Positions 7,850-55,432 of a stretch of 64,000 nucleotides of DNA are shown one piece after another. Position 1 is the first letter of the stretch; the number at the start of each line of letters is the position of its first letter. The stretch is taken from assembly GCA_020241125.1 (NCBI GenBank), contig GCA_020241125.1_4708.1, one strand, 5' to 3'. The notes beneath the pieces were generated by a model that had not been told where the DNA came from, made no database searches, and saw only the letters and a list, made by a program, of their open reading frames with translations. A program made the position numbers and the translations under genes. Source of the stretch: a phage.

Positions 7850-9646
7850 TCAATCGATTATGTCGTGATCGTTAATTTCTACAATTTCTTCATCGAATCG
7901 ACCGACGTCTTTCTTCAAGCCTGCATTGGTTGCTGCAACGTCATTTGCAATTTGTGGGGTAATGATTAACCGACCGCGCTCATCGATAGGTGCGTACATA
8001 CTGAACTTCTGACGTCCGGTTGGTTCGGAGTGTGGAAGATTCAGATAGCTTGCACAGAACGGGATGGAACCACTAACCAAACGACTCTCGTCAGCCAATG
8101 CAGCACCGCCTGCGTTTTGGCTCTGGAGAACAACATGCGTGCTCACTTTGAACAGCATGCAATCACCTGGTGACTGAATCGATGTTGCCACTTTCTCACG
8201 TTTATCACGATTGCTCTGGATATTGAGAATCGCTTCCGTTGCAACTTGATTTCGCAACGCCTTCTGTACATCGCGATTGGTCATCTCTTTACGGTTGTTC
8301 TGTCGTTTACCACGTTCTGTGGTTTTAAGATGGAACCCCAGTTTAAAGATGCTCTTACGCACATCCTCCATGACATATTCCAACACCATCAATTCCTTAC
8401 CGAACATCGTCGTGGTATCAACACGACTCATTTCGATAGTGACATTGTCAATCAGATACGCCATAAATTCGTAGAAGTCGTCGCAAGGAATATTTTCCTG
8501 TTTGAACTTCTTCTGCTGAATCTCGTCAACGTAAAGATCGAGACTGTCGATGTGGTGATTTACATCACGTAACAAACGCGCATCCGCGTTGTTGTTATTA
8601 AAGATAATCAAACCGAGTAATGTACGCCAATGGTCTGGCGCATTCGCGAACTCCTCAACCGGATAGTCTTCCGGAAAACGATCGTAATAACGGTCGATGA
8701 GATACAAGAATGCACCGACAAGGCCAAGAACAATACGTTCCGTGCCTCCGCGTCTTACAGCAATTTGAATATCAGGATGTTTGTAACGTACAGCGCTAGC
8801 GCTACGGCTTTTACCGCTTTTGCTGATACTAAAGCCTTTAGGAATAACCCCCATGGTGCGATAGATTACCCATTGGTCACGCGGAAAATCGCGTTCAGCA
8901 AGGTTCCGTCCGGTTACGGCTTCGACACCTGCAAAACGTCGGAAACACTCACCCACCCCATACTTCGCAAAGAGATAGTGACCCAGTGTGGTTACGCTGG
9001 TGTGGTTGATGTTGTCACCGTTCACTTTACTTTGTTTAGTAAGATGGTAGATTTGCGACCAGGGTAACGACAGGTAATGACGATAATCGATACCGGTCGG
9101 TGTATCATTGCTCAGGAACTGATACGGTGTACGTTTAACCGTGATTTTGTCACGCGGAAGCATGATGAACGCCATGTCTTTCGTGTAACTGATTACCGGG
9201 TCAGCGAGCACTGCACTGAGAATGAAGTTCGCACCACGTAGACGCATTTTACCACCCTGACCTACCGCGGGTAATAGGAGAGGATGTCGGATAATGCAGT
9301 AGTCCTTTCCGGGTTCACGACGGTCACCTGATTCCATCGCGCCGTACCAGCGGAATTCTAGCATCACCATAAACACATCGGATGGCGCAAGGTCGAAGGT
9401 CAGCTTACCGCTATCCTTCCCTTTGGTTTTCTTTCCTCCGCTTAAGTAGTGGAACTGTTCGCGGGCCATACAGCGACGCAGGCCATGATACACCAGATCC
9501 TTAGGTAAACTATCTTTGCTGTTCCGCCAAAGACGATCAACATAGGACTCAACATCTTGCATCTTATCGACGACGATGTTGCGTGCTATCTTCTCGTTCA
9601 TCTTCGGTGCAAGCCCAGCGACAGCTTTGCAGAATCTAGGATCCAT
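7850..9646 (-). CDS. hypothetical protein (598 aa)
   Basis: ORF-track start is GTG at 9649; ATG at 9646 has AAGGAG 6 nt upstream. Confidence 0.8.
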   Translation of the reverse strand: MDPRFCKAVAGLAPKMNEKIARNIVVDKMQDVESYVDRLWRNSKDSLPKDLVYHGLRRCMAREQFHYLSGGKKTKGKDSGKLTFDLAPSDVFMVMLEFRWYGAMESGDRREPGKDYCIIRHPLLLPAVGQGGKMRLRGANFILSAVLADPVISYTKDMAFIMLPRDKITVKRTPYQFLSNDTPTGIDYRHYLSLPWSQIYHLTKQSKVNGDNINHTSVTTLGHYLFAKYGVGECFRRFAGVEAVTGRNLAERDFPRDQWVIYRTMGVIPKGFSISKSGKSRSASAVRYKHPDIQIAVRRGGTERIVLGLVGAFLYLIDRYYDRFPEDYPVEEFANAPDHWRTLLGLIIFNNNNADARLLRDVNHHIDSLDLYVDEIQQKKFKQENIPCDDFYEFMAYLIDNVTIEMSRVDTTTMFGKELMVLEYVMEDVRKSIFKLGFHLKTTERGKRQNNRKEMTNRDVQKALRNQVATEAILNIQSNRDKREKVATSIQSPGDCMLFKVSTHVVLQSQNAGGAALADESRLVSGSIPFCASYLNLPHSEPTGRQKFSMYAPIDERGRLIITPQIANDVAATNAGLKKDVGRFDEEIVEINDHDIID

Positions 9647-9685
9647 CACACACTCCTTTCAGAAAGTTGCTTAAGCAGATTAAAG

Positions 9686-49399: not shown

Positions 49400-51151
49400 A
49401 TGAGCGAACAAGAACGAAAACCTAAGAAGAAACTGCTCGGTATTCAATGTCGACACATCAGCTATAACGAAGCGAACGATGGCAGCAAGAACGACCTCAT
49501 GATCGCAAAAGAGATCATGTTCTTCGATGATAATACGCAAGCGACGAACCTTCGCTTCTTCGAGAATTACAAACGTCCGTTTTGGGTGACGGTAGAGAGT
49601 AAACGTAAGAACAAATATAAAAAGGAAAGCGAGAAGCTCTCGCATGTGCGTCGCTACGATGTCCGCCAAAGCGAACTGGTTGAAAAGATCAGCTCGGTAC
49701 TTTATAAAAGACGTGCTGACGATAACACCCGTTTACAGCAGCTTGCACGGAGTCCATACCTCTATGGAACGGACGTTAGCGCCAGCTGTTATTTAAAAAC
49801 CCAGTACAACACAAAATGGCCGGAATACGTCGATAAATTACCCGCTTCCATTGCCTGTTTCGATATCGAAACCGACGTTGTCCACGGACACGGTAAGATC
49901 GTTTGTATGTCTATTACAATGGGATACAATGCGATACTTTGCTATACCAAGGACTTCGTTGGTCATATTCCGAATGCCATTGAGAAAACCCATGAGAAGA
50001 TTCGATATTACCTGGCCGAACGTCTGAATACCAAAGAAGATCCCCACGCATTCGAAAAATATCAGTACGATGTTCGAATCGTAGAAAGCCCGGCACAAGC
50101 GGTCATCCAATGCATGCAGAAGGTTCACGAATGGCAGCCGGATTATCTCCTTGGCTGGAATATCGCGTTCGATATTCCGCGCATGCTCCAGGCACTGAAC
50201 GAGGAAGGGTATCGTCCCGAGGATGTTTTCTCCGATCCCCGTATACCACCTAAATATCGTATTGCTCGCTGGGTACCACCGAAGACCGACAAGGTATCTG
50301 CTTCAGGTCGTAAAACCAACCTTACCCTTGAGCAAACCTGGCCGATGTTTTATACGATGGCTACGTATCAGGTTATGGATGCGATGTGTGGCTATAAGTT
50401 CGTTCGTTTAGGAAGACCGGATGAAGGACGCTATTCACTCGATGCGGTGTTAGAGCGAAATAAATGCCATACGAAATTAAAAGCTATTCCTGGTACAGAG
50501 GGGTTCACGGAGCTTGCCTGGCACGAAGAGATGCAAACGAACCATCAAATCGACTACGGCGTATATAACCTTTGGGATAACCAGGGTATTGAGGCGTTGG
50601 ACCAGAAAACAAAAGACTATTCGATGACCATCCCTATCCGTTTAGCGGCGTCGGATTTGAAAGATTTCAGTTCTAACCCTAAACGTATCTGCGATAAACT
50701 TTTCTTCGTTTATCTTAACCGTGGGGAAGTCATGGGATGTACCGCTGACGACATGACCCAGGAAGAAGATAAGTGGGTTATCTCACGAGCTGGACATATC
50801 GTCACATTACCATGCGATCTCATGGCTGACAACGGCATTCATCTCTTCTGGGATATGCCGAACCTGAGAAGTTATATCCGTCTATTCGTTGCAGACCTTG
50901 ACATTAGCAGTTCATACCCGAATGGGCAGATCCTGTTGAATCTATCCAGAGCGTGTGTTTTTCGCGAGCTCTCACGCATTGAGGGCGTCTCTGACTATCA
51001 ATTCAGGAAGTTAGGTATCAACTTTATTACCGGAGGTAAAACGAACGCTGTAGACTTCTGTAGAATCGTTTATAAAGCACCATCGATGTTTGAACTTTTA
51101 GAACATTTCGATGCAACGCGTCCAAAAGAGGAAGCGCGGACCATCGAATGA
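49400..51151 (+). CDS. family-B DNA polymerase N-terminal fragment: 3'-5' exonuclease domain plus polymerase motif A (583 aa)
   Basis: Exo I ACFDIETD, Exo II YLLGWNIAFDIPRML, Exo III YSLDAVLER, motif A DISSSYPN, degenerate motif B-like KLGINFITGG; ORF ends before any motif C (YGDTDS). Confidence 0.75.
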   Translation: MSEQERKPKKKLLGIQCRHISYNEANDGSKNDLMIAKEIMFFDDNTQATNLRFFENYKRPFWVTVESKRKNKYKKESEKLSHVRRYDVRQSELVEKISSVLYKRRADDNTRLQQLARSPYLYGTDVSASCYLKTQYNTKWPEYVDKLPASIACFDIETDVVHGHGKIVCMSITMGYNAILCYTKDFVGHIPNAIEKTHEKIRYYLAERLNTKEDPHAFEKYQYDVRIVESPAQAVIQCMQKVHEWQPDYLLGWNIAFDIPRMLQALNEEGYRPEDVFSDPRIPPKYRIARWVPPKTDKVSASGRKTNLTLEQTWPMFYTMATYQVMDAMCGYKFVRLGRPDEGRYSLDAVLERNKCHTKLKAIPGTEGFTELAWHEEMQTNHQIDYGVYNLWDNQGIEALDQKTKDYSMTIPIRLAASDLKDFSSNPKRICDKLFFVYLNRGEVMGCTADDMTQEEDKWVISRAGHIVTLPCDLMADNGIHLFWDMPNLRSYIRLFVADLDISSSYPNGQILLNLSRACVFRELSRIEGVSDYQFRKLGINFITGGKTNAVDFCRIVYKAPSMFELLEHFDATRPKEEARTIE

Positions 51152-51190: not shown

Positions 51191-51245
51191 CATGCGAAGC
51201 CCCTCCCCCTGGCGGAAGCCGGAGGGAGGGGTGAGGTTTATGCGC
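51191..51245. terminator. GC-rich palindromic hairpin family member between convergent genes
   Basis: CCCCTCCCCCTGGCGGAAGCCGGAGGGAGGGG with GGAA loop. Confidence 0.5.
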
Positions 51246-51723
51246 GTTCGTTACCAACCGTTACTTTGTAGTCAGCGTCGGTTAAGAAAATAGACAGGAA
51301 TCCATGTTCTTTGCAAATCTTACTAAGGATGTCAGCAATGATTTCGTTGATCATCGGCTTGTTTGCAAGGGCATAGATGTACCCGGGTGTAAAAGAAAGT
51401 GCGTGATTGATCATAGGCTCATGAGAAGCCAAGATAAGGATCACATGATGCTTCCCATCGTCGGTAACGACCGCTTGCGTAGACACGAAGAAATCAGTGA
51501 AGCAGCAGCGATCACAGGCTTTAGGTATATACAAGTCACCCAGAGCTTCGTCACGTGCTTTTACGTGTGTTTCAGGGGTGATGCTGCTAAGTTGATCTTC
51601 AGCGAGATCCAAGACATCCTCAATCGTTTTAAGAATAGCGTTGCGGAAATCCTCACGGTAGAATGGGATGATATCACGATCGTTCATGTAATCGCCGGAT
51701 TCGATAGTAAAGTTGATGTTCAT
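51238..51723 (-). CDS. hypothetical small protein (161 aa), first gene of small-protein array
   Basis: ORF. Confidence 0.65.
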   Translation of the reverse strand: MNINFTIESGDYMNDRDIIPFYREDFRNAILKTIEDVLDLAEDQLSSITPETHVKARDEALGDLYIPKACDRCCFTDFFVSTQAVVTDDGKHHVILILASHEPMINHALSFTPGYIYALANKPMINEIIADILSKICKEHGFLSIFLTDADYKVTVGNERA

Positions 51724-51793
51724 TGAATGCTCCTAGTGGTTATGTCGATTGATCGATGTATTGATTTATGTTTGAAGGTGTTGTTCACCTTCG

Positions 51794-52258
51794 TTAGATA
51801 TCGTCATCCGTGGTGCCGTAGGACATATGCTGAATTAATTTTCTCGGCTCGATGAAAATACGACATGTGATAAACACATCGGGATCGTATTGCTCCACGC
51901 AACGTCCGAAGGTTTGTTTTGCGGCTTGGCGCATCGATGTTATTTCCTGATCGTTCATCGCATTATCGAATTCGATGTTGATCGCGATTTTATCGGGAAA
52001 TAAATAGATAAAGTAATCGCCGCTGATACCACCATCATCAAAGTGACGTTCATTGTAGCACTGGACGAGCTTACCTTCACGTTCTTTCTGATACCACCCA
52101 AGGATACTATTAAGACCTCTGTCCACGCATTCGAATGCTTGAGTAATAACATCCTCAACGACGGATGCAGGCGTGGGACCATTGAATAGACGATCTAAGC
52201 GCTTTTTCATCGATTTGGTTTTCTCGTTCATGATTTCTTTTCCTGTTATAATCGGCAT
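51794..52258 (-). CDS. hypothetical small protein (154 aa; alternative start ATG 52231)
   Basis: First ATG lies inside the palindromic flank of hairpin 52255..52300; internal ATG 52231 has AGGAA SD. Confidence 0.65.
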   Translation of the reverse strand: MPIITGKEIMNEKTKSMKKRLDRLFNGPTPASVVEDVITQAFECVDRGLNSILGWYQKEREGKLVQCYNERHFDDGGISGDYFIYLFPDKIAINIEFDNAMNDQEITSMRQAAKQTFGRCVEQYDPDVFITCRIFIEPRKLIQHMSYGTTDDDI

Positions 52259-52300
52259 ACAACCCTTCCCCGGCCTGATGGCTAGGGAAGGGGCTATGCT
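52255..52300. terminator. GC-rich palindromic hairpin family member, intercistronic
   Basis: GCATACAA-CCCTTCCCCGGCCTGATGGCTAGGGAAGGGG-CTATGC; overlaps first ATG of 51794..52258. Confidence 0.45.
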
Positions 52301-52306
52301 ACGTTG

Positions 52307-52705
52307 TTATGCTTCGCAATCAGCTGAAGGCGTCGCGCCTTTCTTACCAGCGATACGCCAAATCCGACACGCTGGGTAATGGTTAACCTCTAGAGAGCAA
52401 GGAATGTTATATTTCTCTTCCAGCGCATAAAGACATTTCGTTAGCTGCTCCAGCGCGTTCTCGTCGTGTCGTAACGCGTGGTGGCCTAATCGATGTTGGT
52501 CGTTCTTTATATACGCCTCGAAGAGAACATGTTGGCGATGTACGCTGACGTTTACAGCCTCGAGTATAGCTTGGTCGAGCATACGACTAAAGCACATCAA
52601 CGAGTCAGATACGTTTTCTCGCTTAACCAGATCGATCATGGCGGGAATATACGAATGGTCGATGTTATCGATGACCGCTTTAGCGACGGAATCAGCAACG
52701 TTCAT
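52307..52705 (-). CDS. hypothetical small protein (132 aa), tandem paralog of 52743..53138
   Basis: Shares VKAVxDNIDH and EEKYNIPxSLEVN blocks with the next gene. Confidence 0.7.
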   Translation of the reverse strand: MNVADSVAKAVIDNIDHSYIPAMIDLVKRENVSDSLMCFSRMLDQAILEAVNVSVHRQHVLFEAYIKNDQHRLGHHALRHDENALEQLTKCLYALEEKYNIPCSLEVNHYPACRIWRIAGKKGATPSADCEA

Positions 52706-52742
52706 CTTTTTTAATCCCTAGTTTGTTATTGATCACGTATAT

Positions 52743-53138
52743 TTACTCTTTGACGTCAGTTGTCGTTTCGACATGCTTCTCACTACTGACGTACCAGAGC
52801 AGGTACGCTGGGAAAAGATTGACCTCTAAGCTAAATGGGATATTGTATTTCTCTTCCATTTTACAGAGATGTTCTTTAAGTAAATTTCTCGCGTCTCTGT
52901 CACCACGAACAGAGTGCCAGTCTAGTTCTTTGTTCTCCTTTACCAGGACCTCTACGATGATACGTTGCTCGTGAACCTCGGTTTTCACAGTGAAAAGTAA
53001 ATCGCTGCTATCCAAACGGGTAAAACGAATGTATGAACCAGGTGTTTTTTCTTGTTTAATAATATCGATCATGGTAGAAATGCGCGGATGATCGATGTTG
53101 TCGTTAACAGCTTTAACGATGGATTCTACAATGCTCAT
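52743..53138 (-). CDS. hypothetical small protein (131 aa), tandem paralog of 52307..52705
   Basis: Shares conserved blocks with previous gene. Confidence 0.7.
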   Translation of the reverse strand: MSIVESIVKAVNDNIDHPRISTMIDIIKQEKTPGSYIRFTRLDSSDLLFTVKTEVHEQRIIVEVLVKENKELDWHSVRGDRDARNLLKEHLCKMEEKYNIPFSLEVNLFPAYLLWYVSSEKHVETTTDVKE

Positions 53139-53170
53139 TTTTTATCCTTAATGTTATCGATTTGGAAATA

Positions 53171-53938
53171 TTACTTATTTTTGCTTTCTTTATAGACAGT
53201 TGTTACCCACGATGGGAAAGCCGGATGGAAACAGAGCGTGAACGTAACTGTCGTATCGTATTTAAACGCACAGTTCACTAACCGGGTATCTAACGTTTTC
53301 CTTAATCCGTCATCATCGTTATCGATGATGGTCATATCTCTTAATATCCCAAGCACGTTAACGCCATCGGGTGTCTGGGTTACGACAAGTCGTCGTAATG
53401 GCCCGCATGTATAGTCACGTACAAATCCTTTCTTCGGGTCCGATACCCTGTTTAACGCATCGTGATTTTTGATGAATTCATCGGCGATACAATAGGTTTG
53501 TTCCCTTGCTTTATCGGGATCGTATTCTGCTAATAGTTCCTTCGTGTCGAATGTTATCGCGTTATTAGCATTCGATTCAGAAGGGAAACATAAAACTAAA
53601 CGAACAGGGTATTCATATTGATCTGTTCTCGTTTCGAAAGCATTAGCTAAACACGGCTTGTATGCCTTTGCGTCGACATTGTCCAAACACGGATGCAATA
53701 ATGCGTGAATAACGGCACCATCGTCAGTTAAACCGAATTCCAGAAATTGTGTTTCATCGACATCCGTGACGGTTTTCTGAAGATACGCTTTACCGTTAAC
53801 GATATCGGTATCCCACATATCGTCGTTTAACGATTCTTCAAACTTATCGAATATATGGTTTACGAAATTGATGAGTTCATCAATACGACACTGTTGGTTG
53901 AATTCGATTAATCGTTGAACTTTATCTCTGATAGACAT
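53171..53938 (-). CDS. hypothetical protein (255 aa)
   Basis: ORF. Confidence 0.7.
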   Translation of the reverse strand: MSIRDKVQRLIEFNQQCRIDELINFVNHIFDKFEESLNDDMWDTDIVNGKAYLQKTVTDVDETQFLEFGLTDDGAVIHALLHPCLDNVDAKAYKPCLANAFETRTDQYEYPVRLVLCFPSESNANNAITFDTKELLAEYDPDKAREQTYCIADEFIKNHDALNRVSDPKKGFVRDYTCGPLRRLVVTQTPDGVNVLGILRDMTIIDNDDDGLRKTLDTRLVNCAFKYDTTVTFTLCFHPAFPSWVTTVYKESKNK

Positions 53939-53940
53939 GA

Positions 53941-54405
53941 TTACTCCTTAGTTCCTTCTTCGTTGGACGTATATTCCACATAGTGGAATTCACGGCCGTC
54001 GATAAACTTGAGTGCTACTGTAATAGGGAAATCACACGGCATAGCGGATTTCGTAAATGCGTTATCAGCAACATCAGATAACCGACGTATGGTATTCTCC
54101 CCTTTTGCTATGAATGGGAATTTAATGTTAATAAGGATACGGTGTTTGTAAATAGTAAAGACGACAGTGCTGTCGAAATGTACCCCAGTTAAAGTCATTG
54201 TTGGGATACGTTTTACAACGGAGAAATGTGTCCCGTCAATATCGCTACTTCCCACTGACCATTCATCGGAATTGCGTAGACTTTTCTTGAGGATATCAAC
54301 GCTTTGCGTGACCACCTCAGCAACTTGTACGACGTACGTGTCTTTATGCATGTCGAAAAGTTCGTTGACGTTAGATTTGAATGAATAAACCGTTGCCATT
54401 ATCAT
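53941..54405 (-). CDS. hypothetical small protein (154 aa)
   Basis: ORF; C-terminal HYVEYTSNEEG resembles neighbours. Confidence 0.65.
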   Translation of the reverse strand: MIMATVYSFKSNVNELFDMHKDTYVVQVAEVVTQSVDILKKSLRNSDEWSVGSSDIDGTHFSVVKRIPTMTLTGVHFDSTVVFTIYKHRILINIKFPFIAKGENTIRRLSDVADNAFTKSAMPCDFPITVALKFIDGREFHYVEYTSNEEGTKE

Positions 54406-54860
54406 ACCTCTTTTTTCATCTTCATCGGAACAGCGAGTGCAGCACTCGCTGTTCCATTATCCGGCTCATATTCCAATGTAACGAGATTGCAGCCGTCCGA
54501 TAATTCATAATCGATCGCTAGGGGGAACGAGATACCGTGCGACTTTATGCATTTACCAAATGTCTCGTTGGCTGTATACATTAGAAGTTGCTTTGCGGCA
54601 AGCCCGTTTACGCTGAAAGGTAATTGTGCTGTCGCAGCGATACGATTATTGTAAACTCTGATATCGGTGATATCTACAATCGTAGCATTGCCGTGTTGTG
54701 TTGATGGAACGGATAGGTTGTAGAAGTAAGGTTCGGAGTCGGAATCGGGCTCGTTAAATAATTCCCAGCACCCGTCCTCCTGCAATCTTACTTCGAGTAT
54801 TTCAAAGCTTTTAATTATCGATTCTACCAGCTGCTCACCGTAAGAATCCCATGTCGTCAT
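54402..54860 (-). CDS. hypothetical small protein (152 aa)
   Basis: ORF; C-terminal LEYEPDNG motif. Confidence 0.65.
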   Translation of the reverse strand: MTTWDSYGEQLVESIIKSFEILEVRLQEDGCWELFNEPDSDSEPYFYNLSVPSTQHGNATIVDITDIRVYNNRIAATAQLPFSVNGLAAKQLLMYTANETFGKCIKSHGISFPLAIDYELSDGCNLVTLEYEPDNGTASAALAVPMKMKKEV

Positions 54861-54931
54861 TTTTTAACACCTTCGACACCTTTTAACCGATACGTGTCCC
54901 ATCTAACAAGGGACACGATATCGTTGATTAA

Positions 54932-55432
54932 TTACTCTTCTGTGTTTTCATTGTCAGGATCGTAGTGGAATTCGAACAGCCCTGAACCGTCGTGTCCGTT
55001 GATTGTTAGTATAACGGGCATATCGAATCCTCGGACACGCGAATGAAAACATTGTGCTAATTTTAGTTTGGCGTATGCCGCTACTTCATTGACAGCAATA
55101 CACGATTCACCTGTTATACTCAGTATAACGTCGATACTAACAATGTTGTCGTGCAACGCAAAACGCCAGCGATCGATACGATTATTATCTTTATCGGTTG
55201 TCTCGTTTACGAGATAGACTTTATCGTCAACCGACAAAGCGGGACTCCAGCAACGATCGTTTATTAAATTCGCCTGGAGTTTTAGTATCGTCTGATCGAT
55301 AATATCCCAACACGTAACCAGCGTGGTGTCAGGCACTGAGTAGAGAAGGGCGTGCACTTTATCCTTTATTTTAAGTGCTTCCGCAGGACGTCCGCAAATA
55401 CCATGCATTTCGACTTTCTTATTCATATTCAC
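54932..55432 (-). CDS. hypothetical small protein (166 aa)
   Basis: ORF; C-terminal FEFHYDPDNEN motif. Confidence 0.65.
   Translation of the reverse strand: MNMNKKVEMHGICGRPAEALKIKDKVHALLYSVPDTTLVTCWDIIDQTILKLQANLINDRCWSPALSVDDKVYLVNETTDKDNNRIDRWRFALHDNIVSIDVILSITGESCIAVNEVAAYAKLKLAQCFHSRVRGFDMPVILTINGHDGSGLFEFHYDPDNENTEE

Follow-up and report, generated by a model that had tools for sequence, protein, structure and literature searches.

The exonuclease-bearing subunit of a predicted split family-B DNA polymerase in a Goslar-like jumbo phage, with polymerase motif A next to the break

A 583-aa reading frame in the 64,000-nucleotide stretch of phage DNA analysed here (the window) is identified by homology as the exonuclease-bearing subunit of a phiKZ-type split family-B DNA polymerase (PolB), orthologous to phiKZ gp082. 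Taken as a whole, the observations are best explained by an intact exonuclease-bearing subunit of a two-polypeptide replicative PolB whose polymerase site forms when the chains associate, a reading to which we give a probability of roughly 85%. The initial annotation had called the gene a polymerase truncated before motif C, and had placed the missing catalytic aspartates on a separate polypeptide or, as the other option, supposed an exonuclease-dominant variant. Its main inference is right but not new, as the split arrangement has been in the literature since 2008-2012. Thomas 2008 is said to be among the early sources on the phiKZ-type split polymerase, and Cornelissen 2012 reportedly described the split-subunit DNA polymerase of phiKZ-related phages. 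The additions made here, a refined break point and an intron polymorphism, are modest and merit a note rather than a claim of discovery.

The reading frame, taken from the ORF listing of the window, lies in DNA about 93% identical to that of Escherichia phage vB_EcoM_Goslar (MK327938 / NC_048170), a nucleus-forming E. coli jumbo phage, with window position 49400 corresponding to Goslar 79690 (features in Table 1). At least 24 public contigs, several of them 238-239 kb long, encode the same 583-aa protein without a single difference. All five motif strings listed in the initial annotation are present in the order given there, namely FDIETD (residues 154-159), NIAFD (254-258), YSLDA (345-349), DISSSYPN (501-508) and KLGINFITGG (537-546), and the stop follows the last of these by 37 aa rather than by the approximately 55 aa first reported. 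The downstream hairpin and convergent gene described there were both found as well: the hairpin lies 3' of the stop (dG -36 kcal/mol, z -3.1), and the gene past it occupies 51238..51723 on the minus strand.

Table 1. Window coordinates of the exonuclease and motif A subunit gene, its motifs and its 3' flank.
Feature	Position	Strand	Basis or remark
Exonuclease + motif A subunit gene, complete (N-terminal part of a split family-B DNA polymerase, by homology)	49400..51151	+	Orthologue: phiKZ gp082; Goslar gp068 + unannotated exon 2
Exo I, D155-I-E157	49862..49870	+	Conservation; alignment with RB69 FDIE
Exo II, N254-IAF-D258	50159..50173	+	Conservation; alignment with RB69 WNVESFD222IP
YSLDA (not Exo III), matching the conserved PolB stretch PSYSLDYI of RB69	50432..50446	+	Profile and hhalign alignments
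True Exo III, Y389-NLW-D393	50564..50578	+	Conservation; alignment with RB69 Y323-NII-D327
Polymerase motif A, D499-L-D501-ISSS-Y506-P507	50894..50920	+	D501 = RB69 D411; Y506 = steric-gate Y416
Empty homing site, between codons D499 and L500	50896..50897	+	Goslar intron position
C-terminal tail, aa 508-583 (NxS..E, GINxTGG, NAVE, terminal helices)	50921..51148	+	Putative docking role
GC-rich hairpin between convergent genes	51199..51232	.	T-rich tract on minus-strand side

The predicted fold is that of a PolB. An AF2 model built from an alignment of 50 homologues reached a mean pLDDT of 84.9, with values above 90 for nearly all of residues 1-450, and a Foldseek search with this model returned RB69/T4 gp43, Pol epsilon and E. 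coli Pol II as the best PDB matches (E 1e-12 to 1e-10). The family profile matched RB69 gp43 in three collinear pieces (E 5.6e-7), and hhalign of the exonuclease family against a T4-type PolB alignment gave 98% probability (E 1e-13), the similarity beginning in the N-terminal domain, crossing the exonuclease domain and reaching motif A in the palm (template columns 81-429). A stand-alone DnaQ/DEDDy exonuclease was rejected because this similarity is not confined to the exonuclease domain and extends through motif A; the DEDDy exonuclease with a coincidental motif A for which the initial annotation had allowed is likewise not what the alignments describe.

Conservation was counted over 100 full-length homologues, whose overall identity is only about 35%. 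The Exo I residues D155 and E157, aligned with RB69 D114/E116, are present in 100/100, as are N254 of Exo II and both Y389 and D393 of Exo III, and D258 of Exo II is present in 99/100. Because the residues of all three motifs are near-invariant, a catalytically complete and active 3'-5' proofreading exonuclease is expected. One motif had been misassigned: YSLDA, first read as Exo III, corresponds in the alignments to RB69 'PSYSLDYI', a stretch that is conserved but has no catalytic role; its D348 is only 92% conserved, and the true Exo III is Y389-N-L-W-D393.

Motif A, by comparison, had been recognised correctly as DISSSYPN. D499 and D501 are conserved in all 100 homologues and Y506 and P507 in 99 of them, the 98% hhalign path includes the segment and pairs it with RB69 'FDLTSLYPSIIRQVNISPET', and the PolB spacing D-x4-Y-P is kept from D501 to P507, aligned with RB69 D411-P417. 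A profile of the C-terminal 124 residues alone had its best local match at RB69 402-436 (P 9e-4, versus 0.2 for a reversed control), which makes the motif A match by itself only moderately significant. An HMMER search of the PDB with the C-terminal-region profile returned no PolB, and motif A was recovered by profile-profile comparison only. When the chain was modelled alone with AF2, the motif A region and the tail received pLDDT values of 39-73; this low confidence would fit a palm strand that needs a partner, though it is no proof of one.

Conserved residues continue into the tail (N514, E523, R536, N541 and N549). The string KLGINFITGG had been taken as motif B-like, but most homologues have M, E, A or R in place of its K537, and the partner protein described below contains the canonical motif B. 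The absence of a YGDTDS-type motif C, noted from the start, was confirmed: the ORF contains neither motif C D-T-D-S nor a thumb, none of the window ORFs has a plausible motif C, and a regular-expression scan for x-DTD in all window stop-to-stop frames of at least 100 aa gave irrelevant matches only. Nor was there a frameshift or an in-frame motif C of the kind that correction of a sequencing error might have brought to light. PHROGs and the Goslar annotation both give the label 'polymerase' to window ORF 7850..9649 (-), but this ORF was rejected as the missing half, being a non-virion RNA polymerase subunit (PHIKZ123, PDB 7OGP, E 4e-40).

The other polymerase motifs are found on a second protein, represented in Goslar by gp244 (717 aa; 174314..176467, minus strand), which matches Pfam PF20286 divDNApol, 'Divergent Family B DNA polymerase', at E 2e-204. 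Its gene adjoins the SH3DP gene (PF20287) near the chimallin gene and lies about 95 kb from the Goslar exonuclease gene, on the opposite strand and beyond the window. Across 37 gp244 homologues, invariant residues include R122 and K126 (RB69 R482 and K486), motif B K152-x3-N156-S-L-S159-G160, motif C S404-D-T-D-S408 and K484-x-Y486; D405 and D407 are the sole invariant aspartates, and no acidic residue N-terminal to motif B is conserved. The AF2 model of this subunit alone is confident (pLDDT 88), and its best match is again RB69/T4 gp43. Both genes were present in 3/3 Goslar-like IMG/VR contigs, and in the phage collection 308 records contained the polymerase subunit, whose counts per genus equalled those of the exonuclease subunit. 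From the near-identical relatives we infer that a divDNApol gene is also present in this exact phage genome. The separate polypeptide expected to hold the motif C aspartates thus has a counterpart in the gp244 homologue, which carries motifs B and C and co-occurs with the target, and with these motifs supplied by the partner an exonuclease-dominant variant is not needed.

Conservative profile-profile tiling on the T4-type PolB profile assigned columns 81-429 to the exonuclease family and columns 424-567 (79%, E 1.6e-5) and 608-752 to the polymerase family. Placed on RB69 gp43, the two families lie end to end and meet at about residue 432-437, so that the break is just past motif A and ahead of the hairpin preceding the first finger helix; in a more permissive hhalign comparison, RB69 motif A stood opposite a gap in the polymerase family. 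This end-to-end tiling argues that the active site is probably built from both chains.

We propose that this ORF encodes the exonuclease-bearing subunit of a two-polypeptide family-B replicase, the type present throughout the phiKZ-like (Chimalliviridae) jumbo phages. Its chain would contribute the N-terminal domain of PolB, the site for proofreading and, in the first segment of the palm, motif A with the metal ligand Asp501 and the steric-gate residue Tyr506. The gp244 homologue would add the fingers, with R122, K126 and the motif B residues K152 and N156, as well as a long insert made of helices, motif C with D405 and D407, the KxY segment that binds the primer, and the thumb. The polymerase active site would form only upon association of the two chains, with motif A acting in trans and one chain's unmatched tail and the other chain's N-terminus serving as putative docking surfaces. 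In this scheme the two chains would make up a heterodimer, to which the SH3DP protein may also belong. As to the detail of the centre, we lean towards a composite site in which the exonuclease subunit contributes the motif A Asp and the steric-gate Tyr and divDNApol contributes motifs B and C, neither chain polymerising alone, and we favour with similar or slightly greater confidence D501 of the exonuclease chain as the motif A ligand, unlike the 2011 assignment.

In that assignment, by Kazlauskas and Venclovas, the two catalytic aspartates are EL D229 and D398, both in the polymerase polypeptide (PMC3201878); mapping the ligand to D501 refines it and partly contradicts it. EL D398 is in motif C. 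EL D229 is C-terminal to EL motif B (K158), in a helical segment, and its counterpart by sequence context is Goslar D221, with a conservation of only 86%, automated mapping instead giving the adjacent variable column K223. Were the published domain and active-site assignment (PMC3201878) to hold, the protein studied here could be a stand-alone proofreading exonuclease whose motif A-like segment is a relic without catalytic function or no more than a docking element, the polymerase subunit completing its site with another acidic ligand (the EL D229 equivalent or E194). The description of the exonuclease as a separate protein by Iyer 2021 (PMC7824862) and the confident model of the polymerase subunit by itself point the same way. 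We nevertheless consider this unlikely: the first candidate ligand is situated past motif B and varies among homologues, the 37 polymerase subunits offer no conserved acidic residue before motif B, and the hhalign comparison sets RB69 motif A against a gap in their family. A relic, moreover, is hard to square with D499, D501, Y506 and P507 being kept at 99-100% when overall identity is about 35%.

The length of the protein agrees with its membership in a widespread family. PHROG phrog_3011 'DNA polymerase' matched residues 8-576 of 583 (E 8e-178), PHIKZ082, annotated 'DNA polymerase', matched by BLASTP at E 1e-71, and the sole Pfam match was a sub-threshold one to DNA_pol_B_exo1; NCBIfam contains no model for the exonuclease subunit or the polymerase subunit, and the PDB searched contains no solved structure of any family member. 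A tblastn search matched 291 phage records, 287 of them over at least 80% of the query, with hosts including Pseudomonas, Erwinia, Salmonella, Vibrio, Serratia, Aeromonas, Klebsiella and Ralstonia. Searched exhaustively with a profile, 1.84 billion representative proteins yielded 609 clusters below 1e-30. Predicted proteins of the family are about 550-640 aa long, and the best 150 of the 609 clusters, at 450-700 aa, share a common profile end position and include no fusion to a polymerase domain. P0162 (894 aa), the lone long outlier, was rejected as a natural fusion, its extension being acidic, of low complexity and without a Pfam domain.

By these comparisons, 583 aa is the family norm and the ORF an intact gene rather than a broken polymerase, and the word 'truncated' in the initial annotation is misleading given the coverage of the 287 records and the shared end point. 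The idea that a former full-length PolB has decayed into a pseudogene, or appears broken through an assembly or frameshift error, has in its favour only that motifs B and C are missing from the ORF, and is already refuted by the identical protein on at least 24 independent contigs, the matches over at least 80% in 287/291 records with a common family end point, the full conservation of the catalytic residues and the hairpin and convergent gene past the stop.

Comparison of the window with Goslar revealed a polymorphism at motif A. The Goslar annotation lists a 500-aa ORF, followed by a NUMOD1/HNH_3 protein. Relative to the window, Goslar has an insert of 1762 nt between codons D499 and L500; the last base of the 5' exon is U and the last base of the insert is G, and the 3' part of the insert matches Rfam Intron_gpI with 44.7 bits (E 1.5e-9), the gathering score of 50 not being reached. 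Removal of the insert leaves a 1752-nt CDS in which only 3 residues differ from the window. Judged by these sequence signatures, the motif A codons of Goslar are precisely where a group I intron encoding an HNH endonuclease is inserted, and the window represents the intron-less allele. The flanking exons also differ, with 30 of the 82 nucleotide differences between the two CDSs falling within 120 nt around the insertion site and codons 498-507 all changed, every change being synonymous.

Insertions at this point are not confined to Goslar. At the same junction, a further Goslar-like contig carries an insert of another sequence, and among 120 metagenomic homologues about 17 have ORFs ending at HVAD, HVADLD or similar and 4 have ORFs ending in 'DW(I)' of WIVTLP. 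The motif A codons are a recurrent site for group I introns and other inserts, which hints that the polymerase may have become fragmented through invasion of motif A by mobile elements. Group I introns with HNH/nicking homing endonucleases are found in the DNA polymerase genes of phages SPO1, Bastille (I-BasI) and Pf-WMP3 (I-PfoP3I), and the Goslar insert resembles these and the PhiPA3 RNAP intron in occupying active-site codons of an essential replication gene and in bearing an HNH_3/NUMOD1 ORF. Unlike Goslar and those intron-bearing phages, the window has an unoccupied site.

Joining of the halves into one chain after transcription or translation, by a trans-spliced intron or a split intein, has a parallel in the split-intein PolB known in Nanoarchaeum and could make use of the group I introns that invade the gene at motif A in relatives, yet it is extremely improbable, since the window allele has no intron, the spliced Goslar CDS has the same stop and the same 1752 nt, neither protein has a Hint/intein domain in Pfam (the lone PDB intein match, at E 0.43, is noise), and in the phages inspected the genes lie about 95 kb apart on opposite strands, each with its own start and stop.

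The preferred reading, a two-chain PolB, connects the gene directly to known systems. It is a direct orthologue within the pairs formed by phiKZ gp082 and gp050, SPN3US gp44 and gp18, and the OBP and EL pairs, and it resembles these phiKZ-type pairs in length, motifs, end point and gene block and in having a partner next to the SH3DP gene and chimallin. The split-subunit DNA polymerase of phiKZ-related phages has been described repeatedly (PMC3201878, PMC5105663, PMC5694885); Thomas and co-workers used the term 'split subunit DNA polymerase' for SPN3US gp18 and gp44 and credited Cornelissen 2012 (PMC5105663, PMC5694885), and Iyer et al. 2021 defined the divergent PolB, with the exonuclease encoded elsewhere (PMC7824862). 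Nothing essential sets the target apart from this family apart from the window allele being without Goslar's group I intron, and the model proposed here differs from that of the 2011 paper in placing motif A on the exonuclease subunit, not on the polymerase subunit.

In AR9-type phages, too, part of the polymerase domain is borne by the exonuclease subunit, AR9 gp132 having been described as containing 'a partial catalytic domain' (PMC5312081). These phages are very distant, with tblastn detecting only the C-terminal 40% of the polymerase subunit. In Internexus, a Bacillus phage related to AR9, the polymerase subunit resembles divDNApol in having both motif B (residue 140) and VDTDS (residue 333), but it opens with D-x4-YPN at residues 6-13, which may reflect chance (about 1-2%, by a rough estimate) or a different break point.

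Other natural two-chain PolBs are broken elsewhere. The bicistronic gp43 (43A/43B) of the T4-related phages 25, 44RR, 31, 65 and 133 and that of cyanophage ACG-2014f are such enzymes too, and the phage 25 PolB subunits co-purify and are active (PMC2988022). In this T4-like/ACG-2014f group the split is linked to mobile-element insertions, the break is at the fingertip between two finger helices (about RB69 520, compared with 432-437 here), and the cistrons are 2 bp to 3 kb apart, compared with about 95 kb and opposite strands here. The halves of the Methanothermobacter thermautotrophicus split PolB (Kelman 1999) are also separately encoded, by genes 85 kb apart (PMC3061061), and the chain is interrupted within the palm, about 83 aa on the carboxyl side of the split engineered into the Pfu fingers. 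In the PolB of Rhodothermus phage RM378 the N-terminal domain is separated from the palm domain, ahead of motif A, and the break described here falls between the M. thermautotrophicus and RM378 positions. As located by these alignments, a break directly past motif A is distinct from the T4-like, M. thermautotrophicus and RM378 natural splits.

In an antisense knock-down screen of phiKZ for essential proteins, PHIKZ050 and PHIKZ082 were two of the top hits (PMC12571901). For annotation, the ORF is best treated as one of two essential replicase subunits in nucleus-forming jumbo phages and given neither a truncation nor a pseudogene label. Its intron-less and intron-containing Goslar-like alleles provide a natural system for homing at an active-site codon. 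If motif A acts in trans, structural and biochemical studies of the phiKZ-type replisome must co-express both chains, and polymerisation, sugar discrimination by Tyr506 and proofreading would be coupled through subunit assembly in the phage nucleus.

Two-part family-B polymerases divide at more than one place. The two gp43 coding sequences of Synechococcus phage ACG-2014f are separated by two small ORFs, and the break falls at about RB69 residue 520, in the fingertip, as it does in the 43A/43B phages. The AR9-like polymerase subunit of Bacillus phage Internexus carries a D-x4-YPN string at residues 6-13, with KLLANSFYG (residue 140), a canonical motif B, and VDTDS (residue 333) further along the chain; this N-terminal string could be a chance occurrence, or could reflect a break point unlike that of the phiKZ type. 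Compared with the window protein, phiKZ gp082 (locus L031, 9961-11877) has about 77 additional residues (roughly 354-430) that separate Exo III from the segment equivalent to YSLD, and because this stretch is extra, tblastn matches to the phiKZ group are split in two pieces.

Features in the window and in compared phage loci.
Feature	Location	Strand	Details
Group I intron	Goslar locus L001, 7498-9259		1762 nt; between codons D499 and L500 of the exonuclease-subunit gene
Non-virion RNA polymerase subunit	window, 7850-9649	-	598 aa; matches PHIKZ123 in PDB 7OGP, E 4e-40
ACG-2014f gp43 DNA polymerase	L020, 1760-3235 and 3607-4776		annotated as two CDS, 491 and 389 aa
Internexus AR9-like polymerase subunit	L024, 4020-5945		N-terminus MQETKDYVNSYPN
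GC-rich hairpin	window, 51199-51232		14 bp; between convergent genes
Eight small genes in a row	window, 51238-55432	-	131-255 aa each

Elsewhere in the window, both PHROGs and the Goslar annotation name the RNA polymerase subunit just "polymerase". Downstream of the exonuclease-subunit gene, the hairpin has a T-rich tract at its minus-strand side; the Goslar record carries no terminator annotation for this hairpin. Goslar aligns only partially across the small-gene stretch that follows, in which at least two genes (52307-52705 and 52743-53138) are clear paralogues, both with the N-terminus M..x.S..KAV.DNIDH; the single gene searched among the eight had no PHROG match.

In Goslar the exonuclease-subunit gene is interrupted at motif A by an intron that contains an HNH_3/NUMOD1 endonuclease ORF, whereas the window, at 50894-50923, holds the intron-less allele. 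Codons 498-507 all differ between the two alleles, every change being synonymous and three serine codons switching between AGY and TCN. Of the 82 differences in the CDS, 30 lie within 120 nt of the intron site. This pattern suggests either a co-conversion tract or a homing site that resists cleavage.

A Goslar-like contig (L026, IMGVR_UViG_3300045988_173921) also carries an insert at the same GAT/TAA junction, at about position 2498. Its sequence is unlike the Goslar intron already from the first bases, and therefore two different inserts share one site. Among 120 metagenomic homologues, the ORF ends at HVAD, HVADLD or HVADLDV.. in about 17 and in the "DW(I)" of the WIVTLP motif in four; P0041, P0055, P0076, P0079, P0085, P0097 and P0106 are among these homologues. 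The ORF ends have the look of hot spots for repeated insertion, placed in the codons that this gene conserves best.
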